A DNA stretch of 64,000 nucleotides from a phage. The notes under the pieces were generated by a model. That model saw nothing but the letters and a program-made list of their open reading frames with translations. It was not told where the DNA came from and searched no databases. A program made the position numbers and the translations under genes. Location: sequence record OZ346228.1; one strand, given 5' to 3'. Shown here piece after piece: positions 25,233 to 37,141 of the stretch (position 1 is the stretch's first letter; each line of letters starts with the position of its first letter).

Positions 25233-25733
25233 GTGAAAATTAAGATCTTTGCTATTATTTTGAGCGCACTTTTATCGCTGCCTGTTGTTGCAGCACCAAA
25301 ACAAAAAGTATATCATACTTGCAAGCCCTCAGATACTAAGGAAAACATTCTGGCATGCAATATCTACAGGGAGGCTAGAGGGGATGGCACGATGGGTATG
25401 CTGGCATCAGGGTTTGCCACACTAAACAGGAAATCTCACCCCAAATACCCAGACACTATAAGAAAGATTGTCTACCAACCTAACCAGTTTTCGTGGACAA
25501 ACCACGGCAAAACTTTTAAGGTGACAGAAAAAGATTCATGGGATCACGCTAAAAGTCTTGCAAAGATGCTTCTAAAGGTCTATAATAACAACCATGTTGC
25601 ATACATGGCTATGGACATAACAGGTGGAGCAACACACTACCATACAACCAAAGTACGACCGAAATGGGCAAAAAAGATGCAGAGGACAGCTCAATTCGGG
25701 AGTCATATCTACTACAAGGAGCGCAATAAATGA
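25233..25733 (+). CDS. SleB-like cell wall hydrolase with signal peptide (endolysin candidate)
   Basis: 166 aa; N-terminal signal-like segment (KIFAIILSALLSLPVVAAP); CNIYREARGDG and QFSW motifs typical of SleB/Hydrolase_2 family; GTG start after GGAG. Confidence 0.7.
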   Translation: MKIKIFAIILSALLSLPVVAAPKQKVYHTCKPSDTKENILACNIYREARGDGTMGMLASGFATLNRKSHPKYPDTIRKIVYQPNQFSWTNHGKTFKVTEKDSWDHAKSLAKMLLKVYNNNHVAYMAMDITGGATHYHTTKVRPKWAKKMQRTAQFGSHIYYKERNK

Positions 25734-26275
25734 TTGTAAACAGTAATGAAACTAAAGCAGTACTAACCGGAAATATGGAGGTCACCAGGGGCTCAATTTC
25801 TCTGAACAAAGAGACTTTTGGGCTAATCATTAAAGGGATTTACGAAGATAAGGTGCTGGCAAGCTGCCGTGAACCAATCTTCAATGCTGTGGACTCCCAT
25901 GTTGAGTCTGGACGGGGTGATGTACCGATCATCATTCACTCTCCTACAGACCTTGAACCATACTTCTTTGTGCAGGACGTTGGATTGGGCATGTCGGAAG
26001 AGATGGTCCGCAACACTTTCATGAACCTCGGGGAGTCAACCAAGCGCAACAGCAACGCTCTGGTAGGTAATAAAGGTGTAGGTTCAAAGGCCCCGTTCAG
26101 CATGGTGGACACTTTCGATGTGATCAGTGTGCCATACCAACACAACAGTGCTAAGTGCCGTGCATGCCGCTACGAAATAGTAGCAGCACCGGAATCACGC
26201 AAAGATGGCGATCCGATTGAATACGTAGTTGACCGTGATGGTAACATCATCGACATTATCTACGAGGAGGCGTAA
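25730..26275 (+). CDS. stand-alone GHKL (Bergerat-fold) ATPase domain protein
   Basis: 181 aa; N box EPIFNAVDSH, G1 box VQDVGLGMS, G2 box GNKGVGSKAPF in canonical order; resembles Hsp90/MutL-type ATPase N-domain. Confidence 0.6.
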   Translation: MIVNSNETKAVLTGNMEVTRGSISLNKETFGLIIKGIYEDKVLASCREPIFNAVDSHVESGRGDVPIIIHSPTDLEPYFFVQDVGLGMSEEMVRNTFMNLGESTKRNSNALVGNKGVGSKAPFSMVDTFDVISVPYQHNSAKCRACRYEIVAAPESRKDGDPIEYVVDRDGNIIDIIYEEA

Positions 26276-27983: not shown

Positions 27984-28044
27984 TAAGATGTGAGTATAAA
28001 GGGGAGGCACTCCTCCCCACAAAAACTAAGGAGAGCACCAAACG

Positions 28045-29370
28045 ATGAGTAAAACCAAATTAGAACTAACCTGGATAGGTAAAAACGAGCGCAAAAAGTT
28101 AGAGCCGCACATTTTGTTAGAAGATTCTAGCAAGTCTTACCACAGCCAGAAAGTGACCGAAAACGATATTTTTGATAATAAACTGATTTTTGGAGATAAC
28201 TTATTAGCATTGAAGGCGCTAGAGCAAGAGTATGCAGGCAAAGTGAAGTGTGTTTACATAGACCCGCCATTCAATACCGGGAGGGCTTTTGAGCACTACG
28301 ATGATAGCCTGGAGCATTCCATTTGGCTGGGCTTAATGAGGGATAGGTTAGAAATAATTCGTAATCTTCTAAGTGATGATGGGGTAATATTCGTTCACTT
28401 AGATGATTGCGAAATGGCGTATTTAAAAGTTTTGATGGACGAGATTTTTGGTCGTGCAAATCAGTTAAATACCATATCGATGACCACAAATTCCCCTTCG
28501 GGATTTAAGGCAACAGGAGCCACAGTTTTCTCCACAGCAAACTTTTTGCTTGTATATGCAAAAGATCGCACCCAGAAACCGCTTAATAAAATCTATATAC
28601 CTAAAGGGTACGATACAGGATATAACAAATACCTATTAAACCCGGATGACCATTATAAAAATTGGACGTGGTGCAGTATTGCCGATGCGTTTGCAAAGGC
28701 CAATGGCTATAAGGATGCAAAAGAAGCCAAGAAAAAACTGCCTGACACATTCGATGATGAATTAGCACAATTCGCAATTGATAATGCAGAACGTGTATTT
28801 CAATCTGTTGCAATTGGTGGTGGTGCTAAAATAAAGAGAAAAGAAACTATCGAGAAGTCAAAGAAAGATAGGGATAAGGTTTATGTACATCCAAATGAGG
28901 ATGTTGAAGGATTTTATATCGCAAATGGTAGGCAAATGGTCTTTTACTCCAATAGGCTTTTGGAAATTGACGGTGAGATGCAACCTGCGGAACTAATAAC
29001 TGATGTTTGGACAGACATTAGTTGGAATGGAATAGCAAATGAAGGCGGCGTTAGTTTCAAAAATGGGAAAAAACCAGAAGCGCTTTTGAAGCGGATTTTC
29101 GAAATGTGTACGCGAGAAGGCGATTTGGTATTGGATTCATTCGGTGGTTCGGGAACTACTGCTGCTGTAGCTCACAAGATGAAAAGACGTTGGATCTCAA
29201 TCGAGCTAGGTGATCATTGTCATACCCATATTATTCCGCGCTTGGAAAAAGTGATCGATGGCGAAGATCAAGGTGGTATTTCTAAGTCTGTAAGCTGGCA
29301 AGGTGGTGGTGGCTTCCGTTATTACAAACTCACCCCGGCCTTAGTTGCGAAAGATAAGTCTGATCAATAA
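28045..29370 (+). CDS. DNA amino-methyltransferase (beta-class; N6-adenine or N4-cytosine)
   Basis: 441 aa; catalytic DPPF motif N-terminal (VYIDPPFNTG), AdoMet motif FGGSGTT C-terminal: order IV then I as in Mod/beta-class enzymes. Confidence 0.8.
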   Translation: MSKTKLELTWIGKNERKKLEPHILLEDSSKSYHSQKVTENDIFDNKLIFGDNLLALKALEQEYAGKVKCVYIDPPFNTGRAFEHYDDSLEHSIWLGLMRDRLEIIRNLLSDDGVIFVHLDDCEMAYLKVLMDEIFGRANQLNTISMTTNSPSGFKATGATVFSTANFLLVYAKDRTQKPLNKIYIPKGYDTGYNKYLLNPDDHYKNWTWCSIADAFAKANGYKDAKEAKKKLPDTFDDELAQFAIDNAERVFQSVAIGGGAKIKRKETIEKSKKDRDKVYVHPNEDVEGFYIANGRQMVFYSNRLLEIDGEMQPAELITDVWTDISWNGIANEGGVSFKNGKKPEALLKRIFEMCTREGDLVLDSFGGSGTTAAVAHKMKRRWISIELGDHCHTHIIPRLEKVIDGEDQGGISKSVSWQGGGGFRYYKLTPALVAKDKSDQ

Positions 29371-29383
29371 AGAGTACAATCAA

Positions 29384-29689
29384 ATGATGAAACGTTATAA
29401 ACCATACACTTTTGAAATCGATTTCGAACTTGACGATATGTTCACTGTGGAAGCTCAGGCAGTTGTCCAGTTGCCAGACCCAGAGTGTCGTGATTCTGAT
29501 GTTGACTATTATGGATTTAGACAGATCACTGATGTGCATGTTTACCACAACGGTGAAGAGGTGGACTTCCACCAATTGCCAAACGATATGCGCCACTCAA
29601 TTTACAAACGTGCAGCCCGTGAACTAGAGTCCTATCTGGATGCAGCGACGACAGCAGCTGCATTTGCTGAAGAAGTGGGAGGTTTCTGA
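29384..29689 (+). CDS. hypothetical protein
   Basis: First ATG after the MTase stop; the track start at 29345 is TTG inside the MTase gene. Confidence 0.4.
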   Translation: MMKRYKPYTFEIDFELDDMFTVEAQAVVQLPDPECRDSDVDYYGFRQITDVHVYHNGEEVDFHQLPNDMRHSIYKRAARELESYLDAATTAAAFAEEVGGF

Positions 29690-30084
29690 TGATTACAGGT
29701 GTGAAGATTATCCAATACCACTTAACCAAATTGGAAGATGCTGAAAAAGAGCTTGCAGAAGTTCTAAATAGTGGATATACTTTGCTATCATGCGCCTGCT
29801 CAGACACCTACGCTGTGTGGACACTTATCCGGAAGGAGGAGCCTGCAGGGATCTTGGTGCCAAACCCTAAGATTATCAGTGAAGTGGATGACTGCTCTCA
29901 GGACGGCCTGTCAGAAGACTGGGAAGCATGGGAAGGTGGTGAAAACCCTGCACCAGGTAAGTGGGTAAAATACAAACTACGTAGCGGTGCACAGCACGCT
30001 GGATACTCTGATAACCTGGACTGGAGTCATTCTTCACCGGAATCATTGGTAAGTGCATATGATATCGTTGCTTTTCAGGAATAA
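29689..30084 (+). CDS. hypothetical protein
   Basis: 131-aa ORF, start overlaps upstream stop. Confidence 0.45.
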   Translation: MITGVKIIQYHLTKLEDAEKELAEVLNSGYTLLSCACSDTYAVWTLIRKEEPAGILVPNPKIISEVDDCSQDGLSEDWEAWEGGENPAPGKWVKYKLRSGAQHAGYSDNLDWSHSSPESLVSAYDIVAFQE

Positions 30085-30096
30085 GGAGAGAGTGTT

Positions 30097-30579
30097 ATGT
30101 CAGATTTTATGTGGAAAGTAGGTTATGCCTCTCCTGAAATGTGCGAGGCTTGCTTTGTAAAAATAGGCCGCGAGGATATTGACAAAGTGATCTTTAAGTT
30201 TCGTGATGTATCTGTGATCGGCAACCGAGTGCTTAAGCACTTAAAGAATCTGAAGCTCACCAAAAAGAAGTTCTTCGGACTTTTCGAAGAGAAAGTTGAT
30301 GCTTGGACCCATTGCATTCAGGAAGCTAAATCTCACTACAGTGCTATCGTTACCCCAGAACGGGTAGCCAAGATGGAAGGATTCATCAACAGCACAGAGT
30401 TTGAGTGCCTAAAGGCTGCCCTTAATAGTTATCCAAAGTGCCTCAAACACCTTGACAAGTATGTAGAAAAGGATGGGGAAATGTATCTCACCCTGGACGC
30501 ATATTATGAGATGCAAGAAATTTTAAATTTAGATTTGACATTGGTATCCACCGAGTATACAATAGGTATCCGGGTTTAA
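30097..30579 (+). CDS. hypothetical protein
   Basis: 160-aa ORF with GGAGAG RBS; terminator follows. Confidence 0.5.
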   Translation: MSDFMWKVGYASPEMCEACFVKIGREDIDKVIFKFRDVSVIGNRVLKHLKNLKLTKKKFFGLFEEKVDAWTHCIQEAKSHYSAIVTPERVAKMEGFINSTEFECLKAALNSYPKCLKHLDKYVEKDGEMYLTLDAYYEMQEILNLDLTLVSTEYTIGIRV

Positions 30580-30585
30580 CACTAG

Positions 30586-30612
30586 GCCCTGCCCGAAAGG
30601 GTGGGGCTTTTT
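30586..30612 (+). terminator. rho-independent terminator
   Basis: GCCCTGCCC-GAAA-GGGTGGGGC then TTTTTG; near-identical to the terminator at 41575. Confidence 0.65.
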
Positions 30613-30630
30613 GCATTAGGAGACAGCAAA

Positions 30631-31395
30631 TTGAAATTTATCTACAAAGAACACTACCACAAAGGTGTTGTGTGGAGTCTATTTGACGGGTCTGGTGGTG
30701 CAGTCATTGACTGGGCAAAAGCTGGGTACCTGTGCCTGTGCTTTAATGCAGAAGGCGCTGATCACGGCAGTTATGCAGAGGTTATAACCGATCATCCCAA
30801 CATTCACTATGTGGATTATTGGATTGACCCATGGTTCCCTCAGGAAACTTTTTGCATGTACCCAGCTCCAGACTTTATTCTTGCATTTCCTCCGTGCACG
30901 CATTTAGCGGTATCAGGTGCTGCACATTTTAAGAAAAAGCTGGCTAAGGACCCTCTGATCCAAATTAATGCCGTAAAGGATGCTCGGGTTGCGGAAGAGC
31001 TGGGAGAGATTTACGATTGCCCGTGGCATGTAGAGAATCCTGTGGGTGTTATGTCCACACTGTGGCGCAAACCTGATTACCGTTTTCATCCTTCTGACTA
31101 TGGTGGGTATTTACCGGAGGATGATGTAAACCCTTGGTTTCCTGAATTTATAGCTCCACGTGATGCCTATCCAAAAATAACTTGCGGCTGGATAGGTAAT
31201 GGATTTATAATCCCGCCCACAAAACCTGTCCCGCAAATAGTTGACGCGGTTAGCGGGTATTCTATGCAACACGCCAAGCTGGGTGGAAAGAGTGCAAGAA
31301 CGAAGATGATTCGAAGTCTCACACCACGTGGCTGGGCAAAAGCCGTATTCTTAGCAAACGAGCCTGTAGTAAGGAGCAGAATTAATGGGAAGTAA
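30631..31395 (+). CDS. C5-cytosine methyltransferase-like protein (short)
   Basis: Motif I LFDGSGG, motif IV FPPCTHLAVSG (PC), motif VI HVENPVG (ENV); probable TTG start after AGGAGA, since the track start GTG 30601 lies inside the upstream terminator hairpin; too short for a typical target-recognition domain. Confidence 0.5.
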   Translation: MKFIYKEHYHKGVVWSLFDGSGGAVIDWAKAGYLCLCFNAEGADHGSYAEVITDHPNIHYVDYWIDPWFPQETFCMYPAPDFILAFPPCTHLAVSGAAHFKKKLAKDPLIQINAVKDARVAEELGEIYDCPWHVENPVGVMSTLWRKPDYRFHPSDYGGYLPEDDVNPWFPEFIAPRDAYPKITCGWIGNGFIIPPTKPVPQIVDAVSGYSMQHAKLGGKSARTKMIRSLTPRGWAKAVFLANEPVVRSRINGK

Positions 31396-33463
31396 ATTTA
31401 TGGCATCTGCATACAACCGTTTCGGTGAGCCAAACCCGAAAGCAACTAAGTATAAAAGTGGGGGGAGTGTGAAACGAGACTATCGTGATGAAAAAGAAGT
31501 TGAAACTGTAGAGACTGTTTTAGAAAATACTAAAATTGTCCCTGTCCCACAACAAAATATCGGTCTGATGGCTGCACAATATTTTGGTGTGCGATCAGCA
31601 TTGTCCCAAGAAGACGGTGTGACAGTCACTGCAACATATTTCCCATATTACGACCGCTACGGAAATCTGTCTGGTTTCAAAAAGCGTGACTGGACTATTC
31701 CTAAAGAGCAAAGGGGCCATTTCTCCGTTGTTGGCATCGTAAAGGCCAACTCCCAGATGTTTGGTCAAAAGCTGTGTGCATCTTCCAACAACCGTAAGCA
31801 GATTAATGTTTGTGAGGGAGAAGGTGATGTTATTGCAGCATGGCAGGCTGCATATCAAATACAAGTAAAAGGGATTCTCACCAACGCTAAAGCCCCGGCA
31901 AAGGTGAAACAGTGGGCTAAAGAGGTCCAGGACGGGATCGATGCAGTTATCAACGGGGGTGATTTGGCAGGAAAACCCTGCCTGCCTTTTGTTGGAATTA
32001 ACTGTGGATGTGCAAACGCAGTAGATACTTTTGCAAACAATGAGAAATTTATCCGTAGCTACGGAACAGTGGTCCTTGCAATGGACAACGATGCGGCTAA
32101 CGAGGTAGAGAAGCAAAAACACGTTATCAAAGGTGTTGAAGCCACACATAATATTGCAGCATTTTTGATGGCTGACAACGTTTACCACGTGGAATATCCT
32201 GGCGAGGTAAACGACCCTGATGGTGTAAAAGATATCCGTGACATGCTGAAGGCTAAAAAGCTGGAAGATATTGTAAACATGTTCCGGCATCCTGTTAAGT
32301 ATGTGCCTGATGCTGTGTCGGATTTAGAAGACTTCTCTATCGAATCTTTGCGGAAAAAGACTTCCAACGGGGTAGATATCAGCGCAGAGTTTCCAAAACT
32401 GCAAAAAATGCTAAAAGGCTTGCACAAAGGGACACTCGTAATGCTTACAGGTCCATCAGGAGGTGGTAAAACAACTGTAGCCAAAAAACTGGAACACTGT
32501 ATTGCAAGATACCTAATGGACCCGACATGTCCAAAGGCCGATGACTACGAAGAGGATGATCGTCTATGCATGATTCATCTTGAGGAGGACCCAGAGGAAG
32601 CAATTAACTCCTTGTATGCAAACCAGTTAGGGTTTGATGTTAAAGAGTTTGTTGAAGATCCTAGCCAGTTTTTAACTGATCAAGAACATGCAGAGATTCA
32701 CCAATCATGGGCAAAAGCTGGAAAAATCAAAGTGTTCAAACATTTCGGGTCTATTCCAGTGGACGAGTTGATTACCAAGCTTAAGCAAATGGTCTGCCTG
32801 TACCATTGTCGCTATATTGTGCTGGATCACCTGTCTATGGTAATTTCAGGGCTTAATGTTAAAGATGAGCGAAAAGAACTGGACATGGCTATGACTCAGC
32901 TGGCTGCGTTTTGTAAGCAGTTTAACGTGTTTATCTTGGTGATCGCTCACCTCAAACGTACAGAGATTGTGCCTCCTAAGGACAAGGATGGTAACCCATT
33001 ACCTTTCTGGTATCCTGTGCGAAAAGAGAATTTGCGAGGATCGGCTGGGCTTGAACAGTTGAGTTGGGTAGTCATAGGTGTCGAGGCCGAAGAAATGGTG
33101 GATCGTTCTCGTGGGCGTGTCCGTCTGGTAGGTCTTAAAAACCGTCCAGCAAAAACTTTAGGTATTGCTGACACTTTAGTTATGGACCCACATACAGGTA
33201 AGTTCCATGATGCCAGTAATTGGTACTGGGACAAAGAAATGCAGATGTTTACAGACGGAGAAGGTGGGGAGGTTGTTTGGAGACCTCAGGCCATGTTTGA
33301 GGACCAAGAGCATGCAGTTGTAGAAACACCTATGGGCAAGGTTGTAGCCGATAAGGTTGTAACTCCTACTATTAAGCCTGTTGACACGCAGGAAGACCTT
33401 CAGTACGATGATCCATCCTCTGATCCGGTCCCCGGTTTTGAGGATGATGAAACACCTTTTTAA
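31385..33463 (+). CDS. primase-helicase (T7 gp4-like; TOPRIM plus DnaB-type helicase)
   Basis: 692 aa; TOPRIM-like CEGEGDVIAAWQ, Walker A LTGPSGGGKTT, Walker B IVLDHL; AAGGAG RBS. Confidence 0.8.
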   Translation: MGSKFMASAYNRFGEPNPKATKYKSGGSVKRDYRDEKEVETVETVLENTKIVPVPQQNIGLMAAQYFGVRSALSQEDGVTVTATYFPYYDRYGNLSGFKKRDWTIPKEQRGHFSVVGIVKANSQMFGQKLCASSNNRKQINVCEGEGDVIAAWQAAYQIQVKGILTNAKAPAKVKQWAKEVQDGIDAVINGGDLAGKPCLPFVGINCGCANAVDTFANNEKFIRSYGTVVLAMDNDAANEVEKQKHVIKGVEATHNIAAFLMADNVYHVEYPGEVNDPDGVKDIRDMLKAKKLEDIVNMFRHPVKYVPDAVSDLEDFSIESLRKKTSNGVDISAEFPKLQKMLKGLHKGTLVMLTGPSGGGKTTVAKKLEHCIARYLMDPTCPKADDYEEDDRLCMIHLEEDPEEAINSLYANQLGFDVKEFVEDPSQFLTDQEHAEIHQSWAKAGKIKVFKHFGSIPVDELITKLKQMVCLYHCRYIVLDHLSMVISGLNVKDERKELDMAMTQLAAFCKQFNVFILVIAHLKRTEIVPPKDKDGNPLPFWYPVRKENLRGSAGLEQLSWVVIGVEAEEMVDRSRGRVRLVGLKNRPAKTLGIADTLVMDPHTGKFHDASNWYWDKEMQMFTDGEGGEVVWRPQAMFEDQEHAVVETPMGKVVADKVVTPTIKPVDTQEDLQYDDPSSDPVPGFEDDETPF

Positions 33464-33521: not shown

Positions 33522-35945
33522 ATGAGCATGTGGTCGTTCGACTTTGAGTCATCCGGTTTGCTGGAAGACCCAGATCTTTATTATCACTGCGGCCTGTTTA
33601 AAGAGCTGAATAAGAACCGTTTTATGCTGTTCCTTCCTCTAAATGACCGCACACACTACTCCGAGGAGGATATAGAAAAGGCTAAGAACTTCATTCTGGC
33701 AAAGAAAACTCTTTATAAAGATTTTGAAGTTCGCATAGCAGATTTTTCAGAGTTGGAAGGTTGGCTTACAGGAAATTCTGACTGGTCACCAACAGCTTTG
33801 AACTGCCATAACTGCTACAGTTATGACTTTATGCTGATGGAAAGATTATCTGGTATTCATTTTGATATGTTCCGTGATCCTAAGTGTATGGGGACTATCA
33901 ACGATCACCAGGTTAACCTGTTTGATACGTTGGCGATGAGCCGAATCTTGTGGCCTGATCGCCCTTTACCAAAAGGTTGTCCGGACTCTGTATTCAACCC
34001 GGTTACTAAGAAAATGCAGCCTGTTGGTCCTCACGGCCTTATGGCATGGGGCTACGCCCTTGGTAACCAGAAAGTTCAAATTGATGACTGGCGCGATCTT
34101 CCGTTATGGAAGTATGTGGATCGTGTATTTGAGGACGTTATCATCCAGGAGCTGCTCTGGAAAGAGCTGGTAGCGGAATCAAAAGGTGTATTCTACGGCA
34201 AATCTGACATGCAGAACTTTATGTACGATCCTGCCAAAGAGAAGCCGAAAGGGTTCAAGAAGATCACCTGGAAGAACGCATTACGTCGAGGCATGTTGCA
34301 GCACTTCCTGATGGAGCTGCAGGCCCGTCAGGGTGTATACTTCGACATAGATGGGGCTATTGCTTTACGTGACCGCTGCGATGCGTGGATGAAAGAGATC
34401 GCTGATCGTGTTGAACCACAACTGCCTTTAAAAGAGCTGTCAATGTCTCAGCGGCCCAAGTTCCCTGAAAAGCCGTTTAACCAAGATGGGACAATCTCTA
34501 ATAATGGTTGGAAATGGTTAAAAGATAAGCTTGGCTATCCTGTGGACATGAGTGCTTTAGAGTTCAAAGCCCCACCTAAGCGAGCATTTACCTCTACAGG
34601 AGATGTCAGTAAGATGGGGATAAAATGGTGTGAAGAGATGGGCTGCAAAGACCACGATAAGATGGCTGATTTCTTGAGAGGTTATATTAAGGGCACCTCC
34701 ACACCACAACCTTTACCTAAAGAGCTGATGGATCAGGCAATAAGCGATCTGCAACAGAAGCGAATGCCTGACTGCAAGATACCTATGAAAATCAGCAATC
34801 AGGACGACATTAAGCGATACCTGATCAGTGCTGGTTGGCTTCCGACAATGTGGAGAACTAAGGATGTAACTAAGGACAGCAAGAAGAAAGCTCTACCTGA
34901 TGCAGATGTTGATGCACGAGTATATGCATACATGGACGAGCTTTTAGAGTCAGAGTATTGTGACCTAATTATCAACTTCTGGAACAAAACTGATGCTAAG
35001 TTTCAGACAACAGTGCACAAGTTCCGAAGCTTTCCTAACTCCGAAAGGATTAAAAAGGAAGTGTTCGGGAAAATACGCAGAAAAGCCAGGGCACTTATTA
35101 CTTCTCCGCAACTGAAAGATACGTTTGGACACCTATGTCCGAATCTTGAAAAATTGAACGGAGAGATGGCTAAAGATATCGTCTTGTGGTTATCATTGCG
35201 AAACCGCAGATCGGTCCTTGATCCAATCAAGGAGGATAAGGTTGATACTGGTCTTCTTAATCACCCACGTTTGAAGATTGACCATAAGCTTCCTGCTAAA
35301 AGCTCTGGATTAACAAACACTTCCCGACAGAAACACAGTATTTGTGCAAACATGCCTAAACCATCTCCTAAAGTGGTTATGGGTAAAGAGATGCGTAGCT
35401 TGTGGGGTGTTCCTCCTGGATACTTTGAGATCGGTATTGACGGGTCCAACTTAGAGCAGCTTATCGGGGCTTGGGGTGCCTTTGAGTTCGACAACGGCTT
35501 GTACTATGATGTTGTAAGTAACGGGGACGCACACCAAAACAATGCTGAGGCATATACAAAAGTAGCAGGCAGAGAGGTGTCTCGTAACGACGGTAAACCT
35601 ATCACGTATGGGGTTATGTACGGGGCACAAAAAGATAAAGTTGCAGATATGCTGGATATCTCCCCAGAGTTGGGGCAAAGGGTGATCGATGCACTTTGGG
35701 ATGCCAACCCAGGTCTTAAGGGGCGCAAAGAGGATCTGGAGAAATTCTGGGAAGCAACAGGTAAGAAGTTTATCTACTCTTTTGATGGTCATGCTATCTG
35801 GACCCGATCTAAACACTCTTTACTTAATGCATACCAACAAAATGGCGGCGCATCGTTGTGTGACTTAGTTGGGATACTCATGCACCATCAAATGGTGAAG
35901 CGTGGGTGGTACGATGAAGGTGTTCGTCGTATTATCTATTACCAT
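33522..35945 (+). CDS. DNA polymerase family A, exon 1 (ORF continues to in-intron stop at 35951)
   Basis: 3'-5' exo motif FDFESSG, pol motif A IDGSNLEQL, motif B K..ITYGVMYG; ORF stops right after ...IIYYH-K, before motif C. Confidence 0.8.
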
Positions 35946-36787
35946 AAATAACATTGTGGCTTCGTGCAGTGATGCACGTCGAAAACCTCTTTAATTGACG
36001 GGAAGGCTAAGTTGACTTTTACACCTAAACATGGTAAAAGCTCAATATGCTAATCCGCAGCGAAGACTAAAGGGGTGTAGTTAAAATGGCTAGATCAGTT
36101 GAGTATCACGGATATACCGTGTTTGATGATGGAACAATACCTTTATCGAAACGTGATCATACAACAATGTTTTGTTTTGATAATGGTCGAGGTTACCTTT
36201 GCGTAACCATGTTCATCGAGGGGAAGCAGTGCACAAAAGGTGTCCACCACTTGGTTGCTGAATGCTTTGTATCAAACCCTGATCCTGAAAGGCTCACATG
36301 GGTGAACCATAAGGACGGAAACAAATACAACAATGCATACTGGAACCTTGAATGGACCACCCCTGGTGGAAATATCAAACACGCTTATGATAATGACCTC
36401 AGAGTAAGGCCAGTCGGTGAGTATAATGCCAACGCTGTACTGACCGAGGATGAGGTAACGGAGATTTGCGAACTGTTACAAAGTGGTTTACGACAATGCG
36501 AGATTAGGGATCTTGGGTATCCTTATGAGACGGTCAGAGCCATAAAGCAAAGAAGACAGTGGAAACATATCTCTAAAAACTACACCTGGTAGTAACGTTC
36601 AGAGACTATCGAAAGCATAGCGCCAACATAAATTGGTGCGAAGAAGCGAGTAGAGTAGACCAGCAAGTGCGGTCGAAATGGGAGGTGCCTTGGTAACAAG
36701 GTAGTGAGATAGTCCGATCCATACAGGAAACTGTATGGCTGTGCACGTAATGGTGCGGGGTAGCTTAACGACCTACCTGAACTATTG
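35946..36787 (+). ncRNA. group I self-splicing intron (842 nt) in DNA polymerase gene
   Basis: 5' exon ends in U, intron ends in G; IGS UUGUGG (about 35954-35959) complementary to CCAU|AA; P/Q/R/S-like elements aattgacgggaaggc (~35993), aatccgcagc (~36052), gttcagagacta (~36597), gagatagtcc (~36706); HNH ORF between Q and R. Confidence 0.8.
36086..36592 (+). CDS. HNH homing endonuclease (intron-encoded)
   Basis: 168 aa; HHLVAECF ... NHKDGNKYNNAYWNLEWTT HNH signature; out of frame with polymerase exons; lies within the intron. Confidence 0.8.
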   Translation: MARSVEYHGYTVFDDGTIPLSKRDHTTMFCFDNGRGYLCVTMFIEGKQCTKGVHHLVAECFVSNPDPERLTWVNHKDGNKYNNAYWNLEWTTPGGNIKHAYDNDLRVRPVGEYNANAVLTEDEVTEICELLQSGLRQCEIRDLGYPYETVRAIKQRRQWKHISKNYTW

Positions 36788-37141
36788 GATGAGTACCAAC
36801 TTCAAGTCCCTGACACACCGAAGTATAAGACTGTGTACACCTTCGACACAATCGAAGAACTGGAAGCATTTAAGGCAGAGCAGGAGGCCAAACTTCATGT
36901 GTTCGACGGTCATAAGTACAAAAAGGCACGCAAGGATGAGGACGGAAACGAAGTGGTTGACAGAGACGGAAACACGGTGTACGATCCTATCCTGAACGAT
37001 GACGGAAAGCTTGAACTTATCTGGAGCCCTGTGGGTGAAATGGTGGTGCATTGCTTCTGGCAAGCTTCTAAAATGATGGGCGTCCCGTTCCAGATCACGG
37101 GTGAATACCTGTGTGGTCGTAATTGGGGTGATTGTCACTAA
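36788..37141 (+). CDS. DNA polymerase family A, exon 2
   Basis: Reading frame open from 36764; DEYQLQV supplies the DE of motif C (YYH|DE) when joined to exon 1; ends GRNWGDCH like PolA C-termini (T7 ...GPNWAICH). Confidence 0.7.
   Translation, partial: DEYQLQVPDTPKYKTVYTFDTIEELEAFKAEQEAKLHVFDGHKYKKARKDEDGNEVVDRDGNTVYDPILNDDGKLELIWSPVGEMVVHCFWQASKMMGVPFQITGEYLCGRNWGDCH

Follow-up and report, generated by a model that had tools for sequence, protein, structure and literature searches.

Within the window, a stretch of 64,000 nucleotides from the genome of a Vequintavirus (rV5-like) phage of Escherichia coli, two methyltransferase (MTase) genes of different classes, ORF A and ORF E, flank ORFs B, C, and D, all three annotated as hypothetical proteins; this arrangement is as a sequence-only reading had described it (Table 1). 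The 3.4-kb region is 90 to 100% identical in 118 phage records, and the gene that follows ORF E in rV5-like phages is conserved as a DNA primase/helicase, whose start is overlapped by the 3' end of ORF E by 11 nt. A near-consensus promoter match sits within the 3' end of ORF D, but it is a pattern match only, and the total of such matches across the region equals chance expectation in our consensus scan. A terminator-like hairpin lies between ORF D and ORF E, where the related records EdH4, Alma, and Murica carry annotated "Terminator" features. We regard it as likely that this early/replication gene cluster of Vequintavirus holds two independent orphan DNA methyltransferases, one a captured Type III Mod and the other a compact C5-MTase. 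The finding is real but ordinary: >80 public genomes already carry both ORFs annotated as methyltransferases, and the phage family of the cytosine enzyme is common and has been tested before.

Table 1. Features of the methyltransferase region, in window coordinates
Feature	Position	Strand	Basis
ORF A ribosome-binding site, AAGGAGAG	28028..28035	+	Read from sequence; 9 nt before ATG
Segment shared with bacterial Type III RM locus	28032..29379	+	blastn, 94.0% over 1363 bp to E. coli locus L022, 7987-9349
ORF A, putative orphan beta-class N6-adenine DNA MTase, Type III Mod without C-terminal ~127 aa	28045..29370	+	PF01555, PADLOC, homology
ORF B, 101 aa, ancestral small phage gene	29384..29689	+	phrog_4240
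ORF C, 131 aa, ancestral small phage gene	29689..30084	+	phrog_11995
ORF D, 160 aa, Vequintavirus-specific	30097..30579	+	phrog_12900
Sigma-70-like promoter match	30535..30563	+	Consensus scan; TTGACA, 17 nt, TACAAT; 11/12
Intrinsic-terminator-like hairpin	30584..30609	+	Sequence scan; 11-bp stem, 7 G-C pairs, then T-run
ORF E ribosome-binding site, AGGAGA	30618..30623	+	Sequence; 7 nt before TTG start
ORF E, predicted short "Dcm-like" C5-cytosine DNA MTase, 254 aa	30631..31395	+	Motifs, phrog_757, fold
DNA primase/helicase	31385..33463	+	phrog_239 (6.6e-160), DnaB_C; synteny with Salmonella phage locus L021

ORF A encodes 441 aa from an ATG start. Its DPPF motif (aa 73-76, nt 28261-28272) lies upstream of FGGSGTT (aa 366-372, nt 29140-29160), and since motif IV thus precedes motif I, the order is that of the beta class; the earlier assignment to the beta-class amino-MTases, made from these two strings, is correct, and PF01555 (N6_N4_Mtase) spans aa 67-393 with an E value of 3.8e-42 (145 bits against a cut-off of 26.7). 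The best PDB sequence matches are the Type III Mods 6k0w and 4zcf. The PADLOC profile MTase_III (PDLC03636) was recovered at 2.1e-204, though only over profile positions 2-444 of 575, so that ORF A falls short of a full-length Type III Mod match; the E. coli Mod discussed below covers positions 2-572 of the same profile. More precisely, ORF A is a Type III Mod gene taken from a host restriction-modification (RM) system, with its C terminus lost.

Several observations document this capture. The segment shared with the bacterial locus, into which the ribosome-binding site of ORF A partly falls, comprises the mod ribosome-binding site together with the first ~450 codons, and it recurs at ~94.8% identity in 24-29 of 5426 complete E. 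coli genomes, the Type III system of the source type being rare in this species. At the protein level, ORF A has 96% amino acid identity over aa 1-439 to the E. coli Mod P0273 (567 aa), whose gene is directly followed by one for a 912-aa REase_III (8.8e-191) in an island where AbiD/AbiU and a DrmD-like SNF2 helicase are also encoded. Across phyla, bacteria have full-length homologues (557-637 aa) at 58-76% identity, and in the bacterial orthologues a REase_III gene stands immediately downstream. No Res gene adjoins ORF A, the downstream genes being small phage ORFs, and we therefore class it as an orphan. An 11-bp deletion near 29359 shifts the reading frame and creates a stop codon, removing the last ~127 residues, and homology to the bacterial mod gene ends at 29379. 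The phage lineage took up the mod gene of an enterobacterial Type III RM system together with its ribosome-binding site, and the 11-bp deletion and a recombination breakpoint cost the gene its last ~127 codons. ORF A and the Type III Mods (E. coli P0273-type, EcoP15I Mod 4zcf, and Helicobacter pylori Mod 6k0w) have in common the beta-class motif order, an N-terminal TWxGK region, a catalytic core, and a central recognition region; unlike them, ORF A has neither a neighboring Res nor the C-terminal ~127 aa, and it is a gene of a lytic phage expressed among replication genes.

The start of ORF E is the TTG codon that had been proposed from the sequence, giving the expected 254 aa; an alternative GTG start at 30601 lies inside the terminator hairpin. 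Motif I, LFDGSGG (aa 17-23; FDGSGG, aa 18-23; FDGSG, nt 30682-30696), has the FxGxG pattern and aligns with DLFAGLGG of M.HhaI, and motif IV reads FPPC, with PPC at aa 87-89 (nt 30889-30897) and Cys89 as the catalytic cysteine. Motifs I and IV (PC) had been noted in the sequence-only reading, but the "ENV" given there for motif VI is absent from the protein as a literal string, the motif being ENP (aa 135-137, nt 31033-31041). In hhalign, Cys89 and Glu135 fall on C81 and E119 of M.HhaI. ORF E is 53-81% identical to 26 aligned relatives of 226-262 aa, G20 and S21 are invariant in 27 relatives, and P87, P88, C89, E135, N136, and P137 are likewise invariant, as is the block LGGKSxRTKxIRSLTPRG, which contains the conserved C-terminal IRSLTPRG (nt 31309-31332).

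Other parts of the canonical C5-MTase layout are absent from ORF E. The protein has no QxRxR (motif VIII), and the strand at that place reads PRDAYPK(K/I)TC, with R177, D178, Y180, K182, and T184 conserved. A variable target-recognition domain (TRD), which would span at least ~80 aa from motif VIII to motif IX, is lacking, only ~45-70 mostly conserved residues separating the beta-7 strand from RSLTPRG. The latter aligns in hhalign, with low confidence, with motif IX (RKLHPRE) of M.HhaI; no motif X could be identified by the same method, and no GN follows RSLTPRG before ORF E ends ~20 aa later. The terminal helix (aa 233-251) might conceivably take the structural place of motif X. A Pfam scan returned no hit to ORF E at E <= 0.1, which places it below the PF00145 threshold, while 18 of the 27 relatives gave PF00145 hits (24.7-28.5 bits for three scanned singly, against a 22-bit cut-off) that cover only profile positions 4-94 of 324. 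The best fold matches of ORF E are nevertheless all C5-MTases, with the catalytic-domain folds of DNMT3A/B at the top.

Homology over its full length places ORF E in a very large phage family, the short (~225-260 aa) "Dcm-like" C5-MTases. It matches phrog_757 at 6.3e-87, over aa 10-261 of the 264-aa GTG-start translation, and a database search returned 3553 homologues (1021 clusters at 50% identity), nearly all of 210-260 aa; these matches are far beyond chance, and the family is present in 1504 of 50,697 phage records. The remark in the sequence-only reading that the protein leaves little room for a TRD was fair, but all of the family is short and ORF E is no exception in this.

A known member of this family is the Dcm-like C5-MTase of the Drexlerviridae phages K42 and KarlJaspers, which is the trigger of retron Ec86/Eco1. 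In published LC-MS measurements, 5mC in msDNA rose with K42 Dcm but not with a quadruple mutant (C82, E128, K175, and K176). The wild-type enzyme was active when a plasmid supplied it alone; its CCWGG specificity was assumed, not mapped. ORF E is 54% identical over 235 aa (E value of 2e-87) to the KarlJaspers protein bas06_0055, which is encoded by a 711-bp gene and has C82, E128, K175, and K176 where the K42 Dcm mutant was altered. The two belong to the same length class (236 and 254 aa), both are orphan genes in a replication region, and the spacing of C82, E128, and K175 matches that of C89, E135, and K182 in ORF E. K176, on the other hand, corresponds to Ile183 in ORF E and to Leu in its closest clade, and ORF E, which starts with TTG, is longer by 10 residues at its N terminus. 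A variable loop (aa 196-215) also differs (DKDNPGWAKTGG against VSGYSMQHAKLGG), so the specificity of ORF E may differ as well. The phages themselves are dissimilar, a 136-kb myovirus in the case of ORF E and a 51-kb siphovirus for the K42/KarlJaspers type. Compared with the PF00145 enzymes M.HhaI and M.HaeIII, ORF E shares motifs I, II, IV (PC), and VI (EN-) and the motif IX-like RxLTPR, with Asn39 in motif II where most of its family has Asp, but it is ~70-100 residues shorter than canonical C5-MTases and is without the large TRD, QxRxR, and GN. Its sequence identity to the catalytic domains of DNMT3A and DNMT3B, which are eukaryotic, multidomain, and oligomeric, is only 12-14%.

The activity of ORF E is predicted from homology, motifs, and fold. 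In the mechanism that we propose, which is the standard one, SAM would bind at FDGSGG, Cys89 would attack C6 of the flipped cytosine, and Glu135 of ENP would contact N3/N4. The conserved RDAYPK(K/I)T strand would replace the canonical QxRxR, and, as in DNMT3A/B, a short, basic, conserved segment (~aa 161-232) may take the place of the usual large target-recognition domain.

The three genes between the methyltransferases have no Pfam or NCBIfam family match. Homologues of ORF B were found only in Vequintavirus in a search of 5.8 billion proteins. A Salmonella rV5-like phage without ORF A has a 34%-identical homologue at the corresponding place. ORF C has a weak N-terminal homologue in Salmonella phage locus L021, and no homologue of ORF D was found in L021 or L020. 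In the Salmonella rV5-like phage PQ002171 the order is helicase, B, C, short MTase, and primase/helicase, with no ORF A or ORF D. We conclude that ORFs B to D are unrelated small phage genes, neither partners of the methyltransferases nor parts of a module with them, and that the flanking arrangement of ORF A and ORF E is coincidental; ORF A is a later insertion that is absent from the related phage.

It could be argued instead that the five genes form one module in which one of the small proteins B, C, and D provides the TRD-less short MTase with DNA recognition. The genes are adjacent on the same strand, ORF E offers only ~70 residues in place of a canonical TRD, and ORF B weakly matches two small PHROG families annotated as "DNA methyltransferase" (2e-5 and 0.008). 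We consider this reading extremely improbable, as ORF D and ORF E have the terminator hairpin between them, the boundaries of ORF A are set by the captured bacterial fragment, the related phage keeps ORF E without A and D, and K42 Dcm was active on its own from a plasmid. Further, short MTases of this family have differing neighbors in lambdoid prophages, T1-like phages, Phapecoctavirus, and rV5-like phages, and this variety speaks against the partner-dependent enzyme that had been listed as an option for ORF E. The other option, a nucleotide-modifying enzyme of the same fold, was not borne out either, and the one that prevails is the short C5-MTase, given the alignment of its Cys and Glu with those of M.HhaI, its fold, and its 5mC-producing homologue. 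A product other than 5mC in DNA, with ORF E either transferring another group (e.g., carboxymethyl from Cx-SAM, as in CmoX) or acting on RNA or free nucleotides, is very unlikely. CmoX (PDB 8yf3), a phage DNA cytosine C5-carboxymethyltransferase of 372 aa, is defined by SPPC, has Arg350 in motif X, and usually comes with CmoA and an amide ligase; ORF E has FPPC, hhalign puts RSLTPRG on motif IX and not on motif X, and the annotation of the complete Vequintavirus genome of JeffSchatz includes neither a CmoA nor an amide-ligase gene. Arginine stands at the motif X position in DNMT3A/B too, and these enzymes use SAM.

For ORF A the competing readings concern function. One holds that it is a decaying, inactive remnant of the captured mod gene, a pseudogene that still reads as an ORF, and the frameshifting deletion that cost it ~127 of 567 aa, together with the lack of restriction resistance among Vequintavirinae in the BASEL collection, could be taken in that sense. 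This is unlikely: comparison with the E. coli mod gene gives a dN/dS of 0.10 (45 synonymous and 19 nonsynonymous changes) and that within Vequintavirus gives 0.09, values of ~0.1 that argue for a functional gene, and at least 86 phage genomes retain the reading frame undamaged, with its ribosome-binding site and every catalytic motif. Forms likewise truncated to ~440-450 aa recur at 60-93% identity, one of them at a different locus in another large phage. On the other side, ORF A might depend on the missing C-terminal domain for dimerization or activity. It is distinctly improbable that ORF A is mainly a decoy, pairing with the full-length Mod of the host or competing for DNA sites and so poisoning Res-Mod assembly, in which case protection would be methylation independent. 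Type III enzymes work as Mod2Res complexes, as in the EcoP15I structure 4zcf, and what was removed is a discrete C-terminal domain, leaving an MTase core and recognition region 96% identical to those of the host; yet the SAM-binding and catalytic motifs are all under purifying selection, which a pure decoy would not need, and the missing domain found no sequence relative in the PDB. We hold it quite improbable that the truncated Mod, beyond being a protective methylase, is a dominant-negative partner or site competitor that disables the cognate Type III Res-Mod complex of E. coli and perhaps also the DrmD-like helicase island that houses it. If this were so, ORF A would be a direct anti-restriction protein built from the defense system's own subunit, and the recurrent truncations in other phages would be convergent.

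Our preferred reading remains that ORF A is an active orphan methyltransferase, and self-modification against restriction, which had been suggested for both ORF A and ORF E, is plausible. The BASEL study reported exceptional sensitivity of Vequintavirinae to each of the six RM systems that it tested, two of them Type III, so their MTases confer no broad protection and any protection must be narrow. Purifying selection, the capture event, fold, motifs, and homology are demonstrated, whereas we infer the enzymatic activity of these two proteins, their target sequences, and any benefit against restriction. The target-recognition region of ORF A is almost unchanged from that of Mod, and on this ground ORF A would N6-methylate adenines at the site of the cognate host Res-Mod system, so that progeny DNA would be protected from this one Type III system. 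Virion DNA of the Vequintavirus Bas51 has been found to carry m6A at 509-511 GTAC sites and 349-576 others, independently of the small GATC MTase, and at least one further phage adenine MTase must therefore be active. This m6A could stem wholly from the fourth MTase of the genus, bas55_0193, a 272-aa gamma-class enzyme encoded outside the window that is as good a candidate as ORF A.

Both methyltransferase (MTase) genes picked out by the sequence-only reading are real and correctly placed, and both have counterparts in public databases. The interval 28000-31400 has 100% identity to the Escherichia phages naswa and magaca and 90 to 99% identity to 116 further records, nearly all of them Vequintavirus (rV5-like myoviruses of ~136 kb). 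Sixteen near-identical records carry the label "Campylobacter phage" with C. jejuni as host, and these look like mislabelled E. coli phages. The locus lies in the early/replication cluster, in the order rII, PIF1/Dda-like helicase, a 113-aa open reading frame (ORF), ORFs A to E, primase/helicase, and DNA polymerase. The main interpretation of the sequence-only reading is largely right, and self-modification of the phage DNA against restriction is plausible; however, both genes were already annotated, ORF A as "putative adenine methyltransferase," [quoted passage not shown] or "putative N6 adenine methyltransferase" and ORF E as "putative site specific DNA methylase" or "Dcm-like C5 cytosine methyltransferase," and the ORF E family already has one characterized member.

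Coordinates and main attributes of the features discussed (window positions unless another record is named)
Feature	Coordinates	Strand	Details
rII deletion	25730-26275, junction 26126-26132		flanked by 7-bp microhomology AGTGTGC
ORF A	28045-29370	+	441 aa; good ribosome-binding site; DPPF at aa 73-76, FGGSGTT at aa 366-372
ORF B	29384-29689	+	
ORF C	29689-30084	+	
ORF D	30097-30579	+	
ORF E	30631-31395	+	254 aa; TTG start 7 nt after AGGAGA; FDGSGG, FPPC, ENP
DNA polymerase gene	exons ~33522-35945 and ~36788-37141		interrupted by 842-bp insert; region 35936-36737
168-aa ORF in insert	36086-36592		weak HNH_3 match, E 0.003
177-aa NPPY enzyme	JeffSchatz MZ501082 105265-105798 (L004 36266-36799)		outside window
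272-aa gamma-class protein bas55_0193	JeffSchatz MZ501082 119040-119858 (L018 41-859)		outside window; EPSAGRGSF ... GNPPFGK

The order of motifs in ORF A, DPPF before FGGSGTT, is that of the beta class, and the protein matches PF01555 (3.8e-42); its closest solved relatives are the Type III Mod subunits of H. pylori (6k0w, 1.3e-28) and EcoP15I (4zcf, 2.2e-24). A search of 5.8 billion proteins recovered bacterial homologues from many phyla that are 557 to 637 aa long, ~130 to 160 residues longer than ORF A, and have 58 to 76% identity across its whole length; a 567-aa E. coli Type III Mod (P0273) reaches 96%. The PADLOC MTase_III model matches ORF A at 2.1e-204, at profile positions 2 to 444 of 575 only. 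At the DNA level, identity to the E. coli locus is 94.0% over 28032-29379, beginning 13 nt 5' of the ATG; an 11-bp deletion near 29359 causes a frameshift that brings a stop codon into frame, and beyond 29379 the two loci are no longer homologous. These comparisons identify ORF A as a captured, truncated mod gene from a Type III system that is rare in E. coli; the bacterial gene occurs in 29 of 5426 complete genomes (chromosomal in all, ~94.8% identity). We rejected ORF B as an out-of-frame Mod C-terminus, since just 12 junction residues match and the remainder is unrelated, and the missing C-terminal domain had no sequence relative in the PDB. Other forms of ~440 to 450 aa resembling ORF A recur elsewhere, in one case flanked by PhoH and ClpP in a different large phage.

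In the recognition region (~aa 179-340), ORF A and its E. coli counterpart differ at only 3 of ~160 positions, so that the phage enzyme is expected to have the same target sequence as the host Mod. The dN/dS of ORF A is 0.10 relative to the E. coli gene (45 synonymous and 19 nonsynonymous differences) and 0.09 between two Vequintavirus genomes, values that argue against decay of the gene. Type III Mod subunits such as EcoP1I and EcoP15I methylate without Res, and the simplest function of ORF A would therefore be self-methylation against the cognate Type III system.

In E. coli and Acinetobacter, a 910- to 933-aa ResIII protein is encoded directly downstream of the mod homologues of ORF A, and in the E. 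coli pair PADLOC assigns Mod to MTase_III over its full length (6e-284) and Res to REase_III (8.8e-191). Other members of the E. coli island include a mad1-type helix-turn-helix (HTH) protein, a DrmD-like SNF2 helicase (9e-209), and AbiD/AbiU genes. The HTH and helicase genes always precede the Mod-Res pair (E. coli loci L022-L025 and L028, Acinetobacter locus L026), and the cassette between helicase and Mod is variable: in E. coli it holds AbiD and AbiU/AIPR, in Acinetobacter DUF4276 and an AAA_15/21 ATPase. The locus looks like a composite defense island with a swappable slot. Assignment of the E. coli island to MADS was rejected, the canonical system having a Type I-like MTase, a specificity subunit, and a bipartite site, as was assignment to ARMADA II, which has YprA/DUF1998 and UvrD components; its PADLOC matches are a Type III Mod-Res pair and a DrmD-like helicase.

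The three genes between the MTases match no Pfam or NCBIfam family, and PHROGs places them under "unknown function" only. In the search of 5.8 billion proteins the sole homologues of ORF B were near-identical ones, and ORF D had no match in the two related phage loci compared. Weak matches of ORF B to phrog_1573 and phrog_2060 (2e-5 and 0.008) bear the label "DNA methyltransferase"; ORF B contains no MTase motif, and the labels may be carried over from neighboring genes. ORFs A to E do not form a module. Between ORFs D and E lies a terminator hairpin, and in the Salmonella rV5-like phage PQ002171 the order is helicase, B homologue, C homologue, short MTase, primase/helicase, and polymerase, with ORFs A and D absent. 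The neighbors of the short MTase are unrelated in a Phapecoctavirus, a T1-like phage, and a lambdoid prophage, and together with the synteny in PQ002171 this indicates that ORF E has long belonged to the rV5-like replication cluster. ORF A was inserted later, its ends set by the bacterial fragment. Directly upstream of the hairpin is a near-consensus sigma-70 promoter match (TTGACA, 17 nt, TACAAT; match and hairpin together span 30535-30609), a transcript from which would reach the terminator ~15 to 40 nt later; this arrangement could be chance, a 5' stabilizing hairpin, or an attenuator.

In ORF E, the motifs FDGSGG and FPPC are present, and the "ENV" of the sequence-only reading in fact reads ENP. 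An alternative upstream GTG start falls within the terminator hairpin. Database searches returned 3553 homologues (1021 clusters at 50% identity), and the family is found in 1504 of 50,697 phage records, with members in Drexlerviridae, Dhillonvirus, Kagunavirus, Phapecoctavirus, and Vequintavirus as well as in lambdoid prophages. Nearly all members have 210 to 260 aa, and the shortness of ORF E is therefore a family trait. Invariant positions in the alignment are G20, S21, P87, P88, C89, E135, N136, P137, and a C-terminal LGGKSxRTKxIRSLTPRG block. ORF E itself has no Pfam match; of 27 relatives, 18 matched PF00145, and the ones scanned individually exceeded its threshold. These matches were confined to the first ~100 positions of the profile, and C-terminal fragments did not match PF00145. 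Alignment by hhalign to a canonical profile built from M.HhaI (sequence verified against 10mh) and nine phage C5-MTases gave 90.7% probability (E 1.3e-6), compared with just 1.9% for a single-sequence HhaI template. The aligned pairs are SLFDGSGG with DLFAGLGG, Cys89 with Cys81, and Glu135-Asn136 with Glu119-Asn120; Asn39 aligns with Glu40 and is Asp in most of the wider family, and RSLTPRG falls on motif IX of this 10-sequence profile, with low confidence at the C-terminus. ORF E has neither a QxRxR nor a GN motif. Of two relatives, P0244 and P0264, one bears a C-terminal HNH_2 endonuclease domain (PF13391, 5.9e-8), forming an MTase-nuclease fusion, and the other, of 414 aa, lacks both catalytic residues, Cys and Glu (AAPPGRD, ISNP), and is probably inactive.

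The characterized member comes from a preprint on retron Ec86, in which the mutants of phage K42 (related to KarlJaspers) that escaped no longer had a 711-bp gene, "Dcm." When expressed, this gene raised 5mC in msDNA by LC-MS, an effect not seen with a C82A/E128A/K175A/K176A mutant; the AlphaFold model of K42 Dcm was also superposed on DNMT3A by the authors, and its CCWGG specificity was assumed on the basis of host Dcm, not mapped. The KarlJaspers gene bas06_0055 is likewise 711 bp and has the same residues at the positions mutated in K42 Dcm, and ORF E is 54% identical to it (E 2e-87). ORF E retains C89, E135, and K182, but its second lysine is replaced by Ile183. It also differs from K42 Dcm in the family's only variable loop (aa 196-215), so that its target sequence may be a different one. 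A rival assignment, that ORF E is a CmoX-like carboxymethyltransferase, is unlikely: the Arg near its C-terminal helix is not diagnostic of CmoX, because DNMT3 enzymes carry one too, its motif is FPPC and not the SPPC of CmoX, no CmoA or ligase gene is annotated in the complete JeffSchatz genome, and its homologue K42 Dcm makes 5mC.

The BASEL study found the subfamily "exceptionally susceptible" to six RM systems, so protection by its MTases is not broad. Published nanopore 6mA calls on virion DNA of the Vequintavirus Bas51 comprise 1405 GATC, 509 GTAC, and 576 other sites; a T83P substitution in the Bas51 "N6 adenine methyltransferase" reduced GATC to 35, with GTAC (511) and other sites (349) retained. 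We rejected this GATC enzyme and retron trigger as the orthologue of ORF A, because D69, D79, and T83 fit the 177-aa NPPY protein bas55_0173, and the mutated gene is therefore not ORF A. In JeffSchatz, ~41 kb separate ORF A from the downstream gene for the 177-aa enzyme, which in Bas51 makes GATC m6A and triggers Retron-Asa1 and Retron-Squ1. Vequintavirus genomes thus have four putative DNA MTases, not two, the fourth being the 272-aa gamma-class protein, which has no Pfam match.

The 125 GTAC sites in the 64-kb window extrapolate to ~530 adenines per genome, close to the 509 to 511 observed, so that GTAC appears to be fully methylated in Bas51. E. coli K-12 is not known to have a GTAC methylase, so a second adenine MTase encoded by the phage is active. 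The two candidates in the genus are ORF A and bas55_0193, and assignment of GTAC m6A to ORF A was not upheld given the latter. Speculatively, a 4-bp palindrome would be an uncommon target for a Type III Mod, and the "other" sites, which number several hundred, would fit recognition of an asymmetric 5-bp sequence. GTAC is under-represented in the window (125 sites against 200 expected from a Markov model and 241 from base composition) although apparently fully methylated in the related Bas51; GAATTC (5 sites) and CTAG (62 sites) are also scarce. Literature searches turned up no restriction-digest or methylome data on rV5-like phages other than those of the retron paper.

The practical value of these findings is modest, and the understanding of these enzyme families is unchanged; the only addition to what is known is the exact origin of ORF A as a truncated Mod. 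Vequintaviruses are common phage therapy candidates, and their methylases affect which hosts support growth. The near-identity of ORF A to a rare E. coli Type III Mod predicts strains that the genus is preadapted to infect. Phage methylases are also known to trigger retron defenses, and a relative of ORF E triggers Ec86.

Elsewhere in the window, identity to naswa is exact from the rII junction to 31806 and ~98% from 31807 on; the window is therefore not the naswa isolate but a mosaic relative. The rII deletion takes out 2653 bp that naswa and all of 120 related phage records retain. The greater part of rIIA and almost the whole of rIIB are lost, and the first ~134 rIIA codons are joined in frame to the last ~47 rIIB codons; the result is reminiscent of T4 r1589, the classic rIIA-rIIB fusion. 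The insert in the DNA polymerase gene is absent from naswa and matches the Rfam group I intron model RF00028 over its full length at 39.1 bits (gathering score, 50; E 3e-8), and the ORF within it probably encodes a homing endonuclease.
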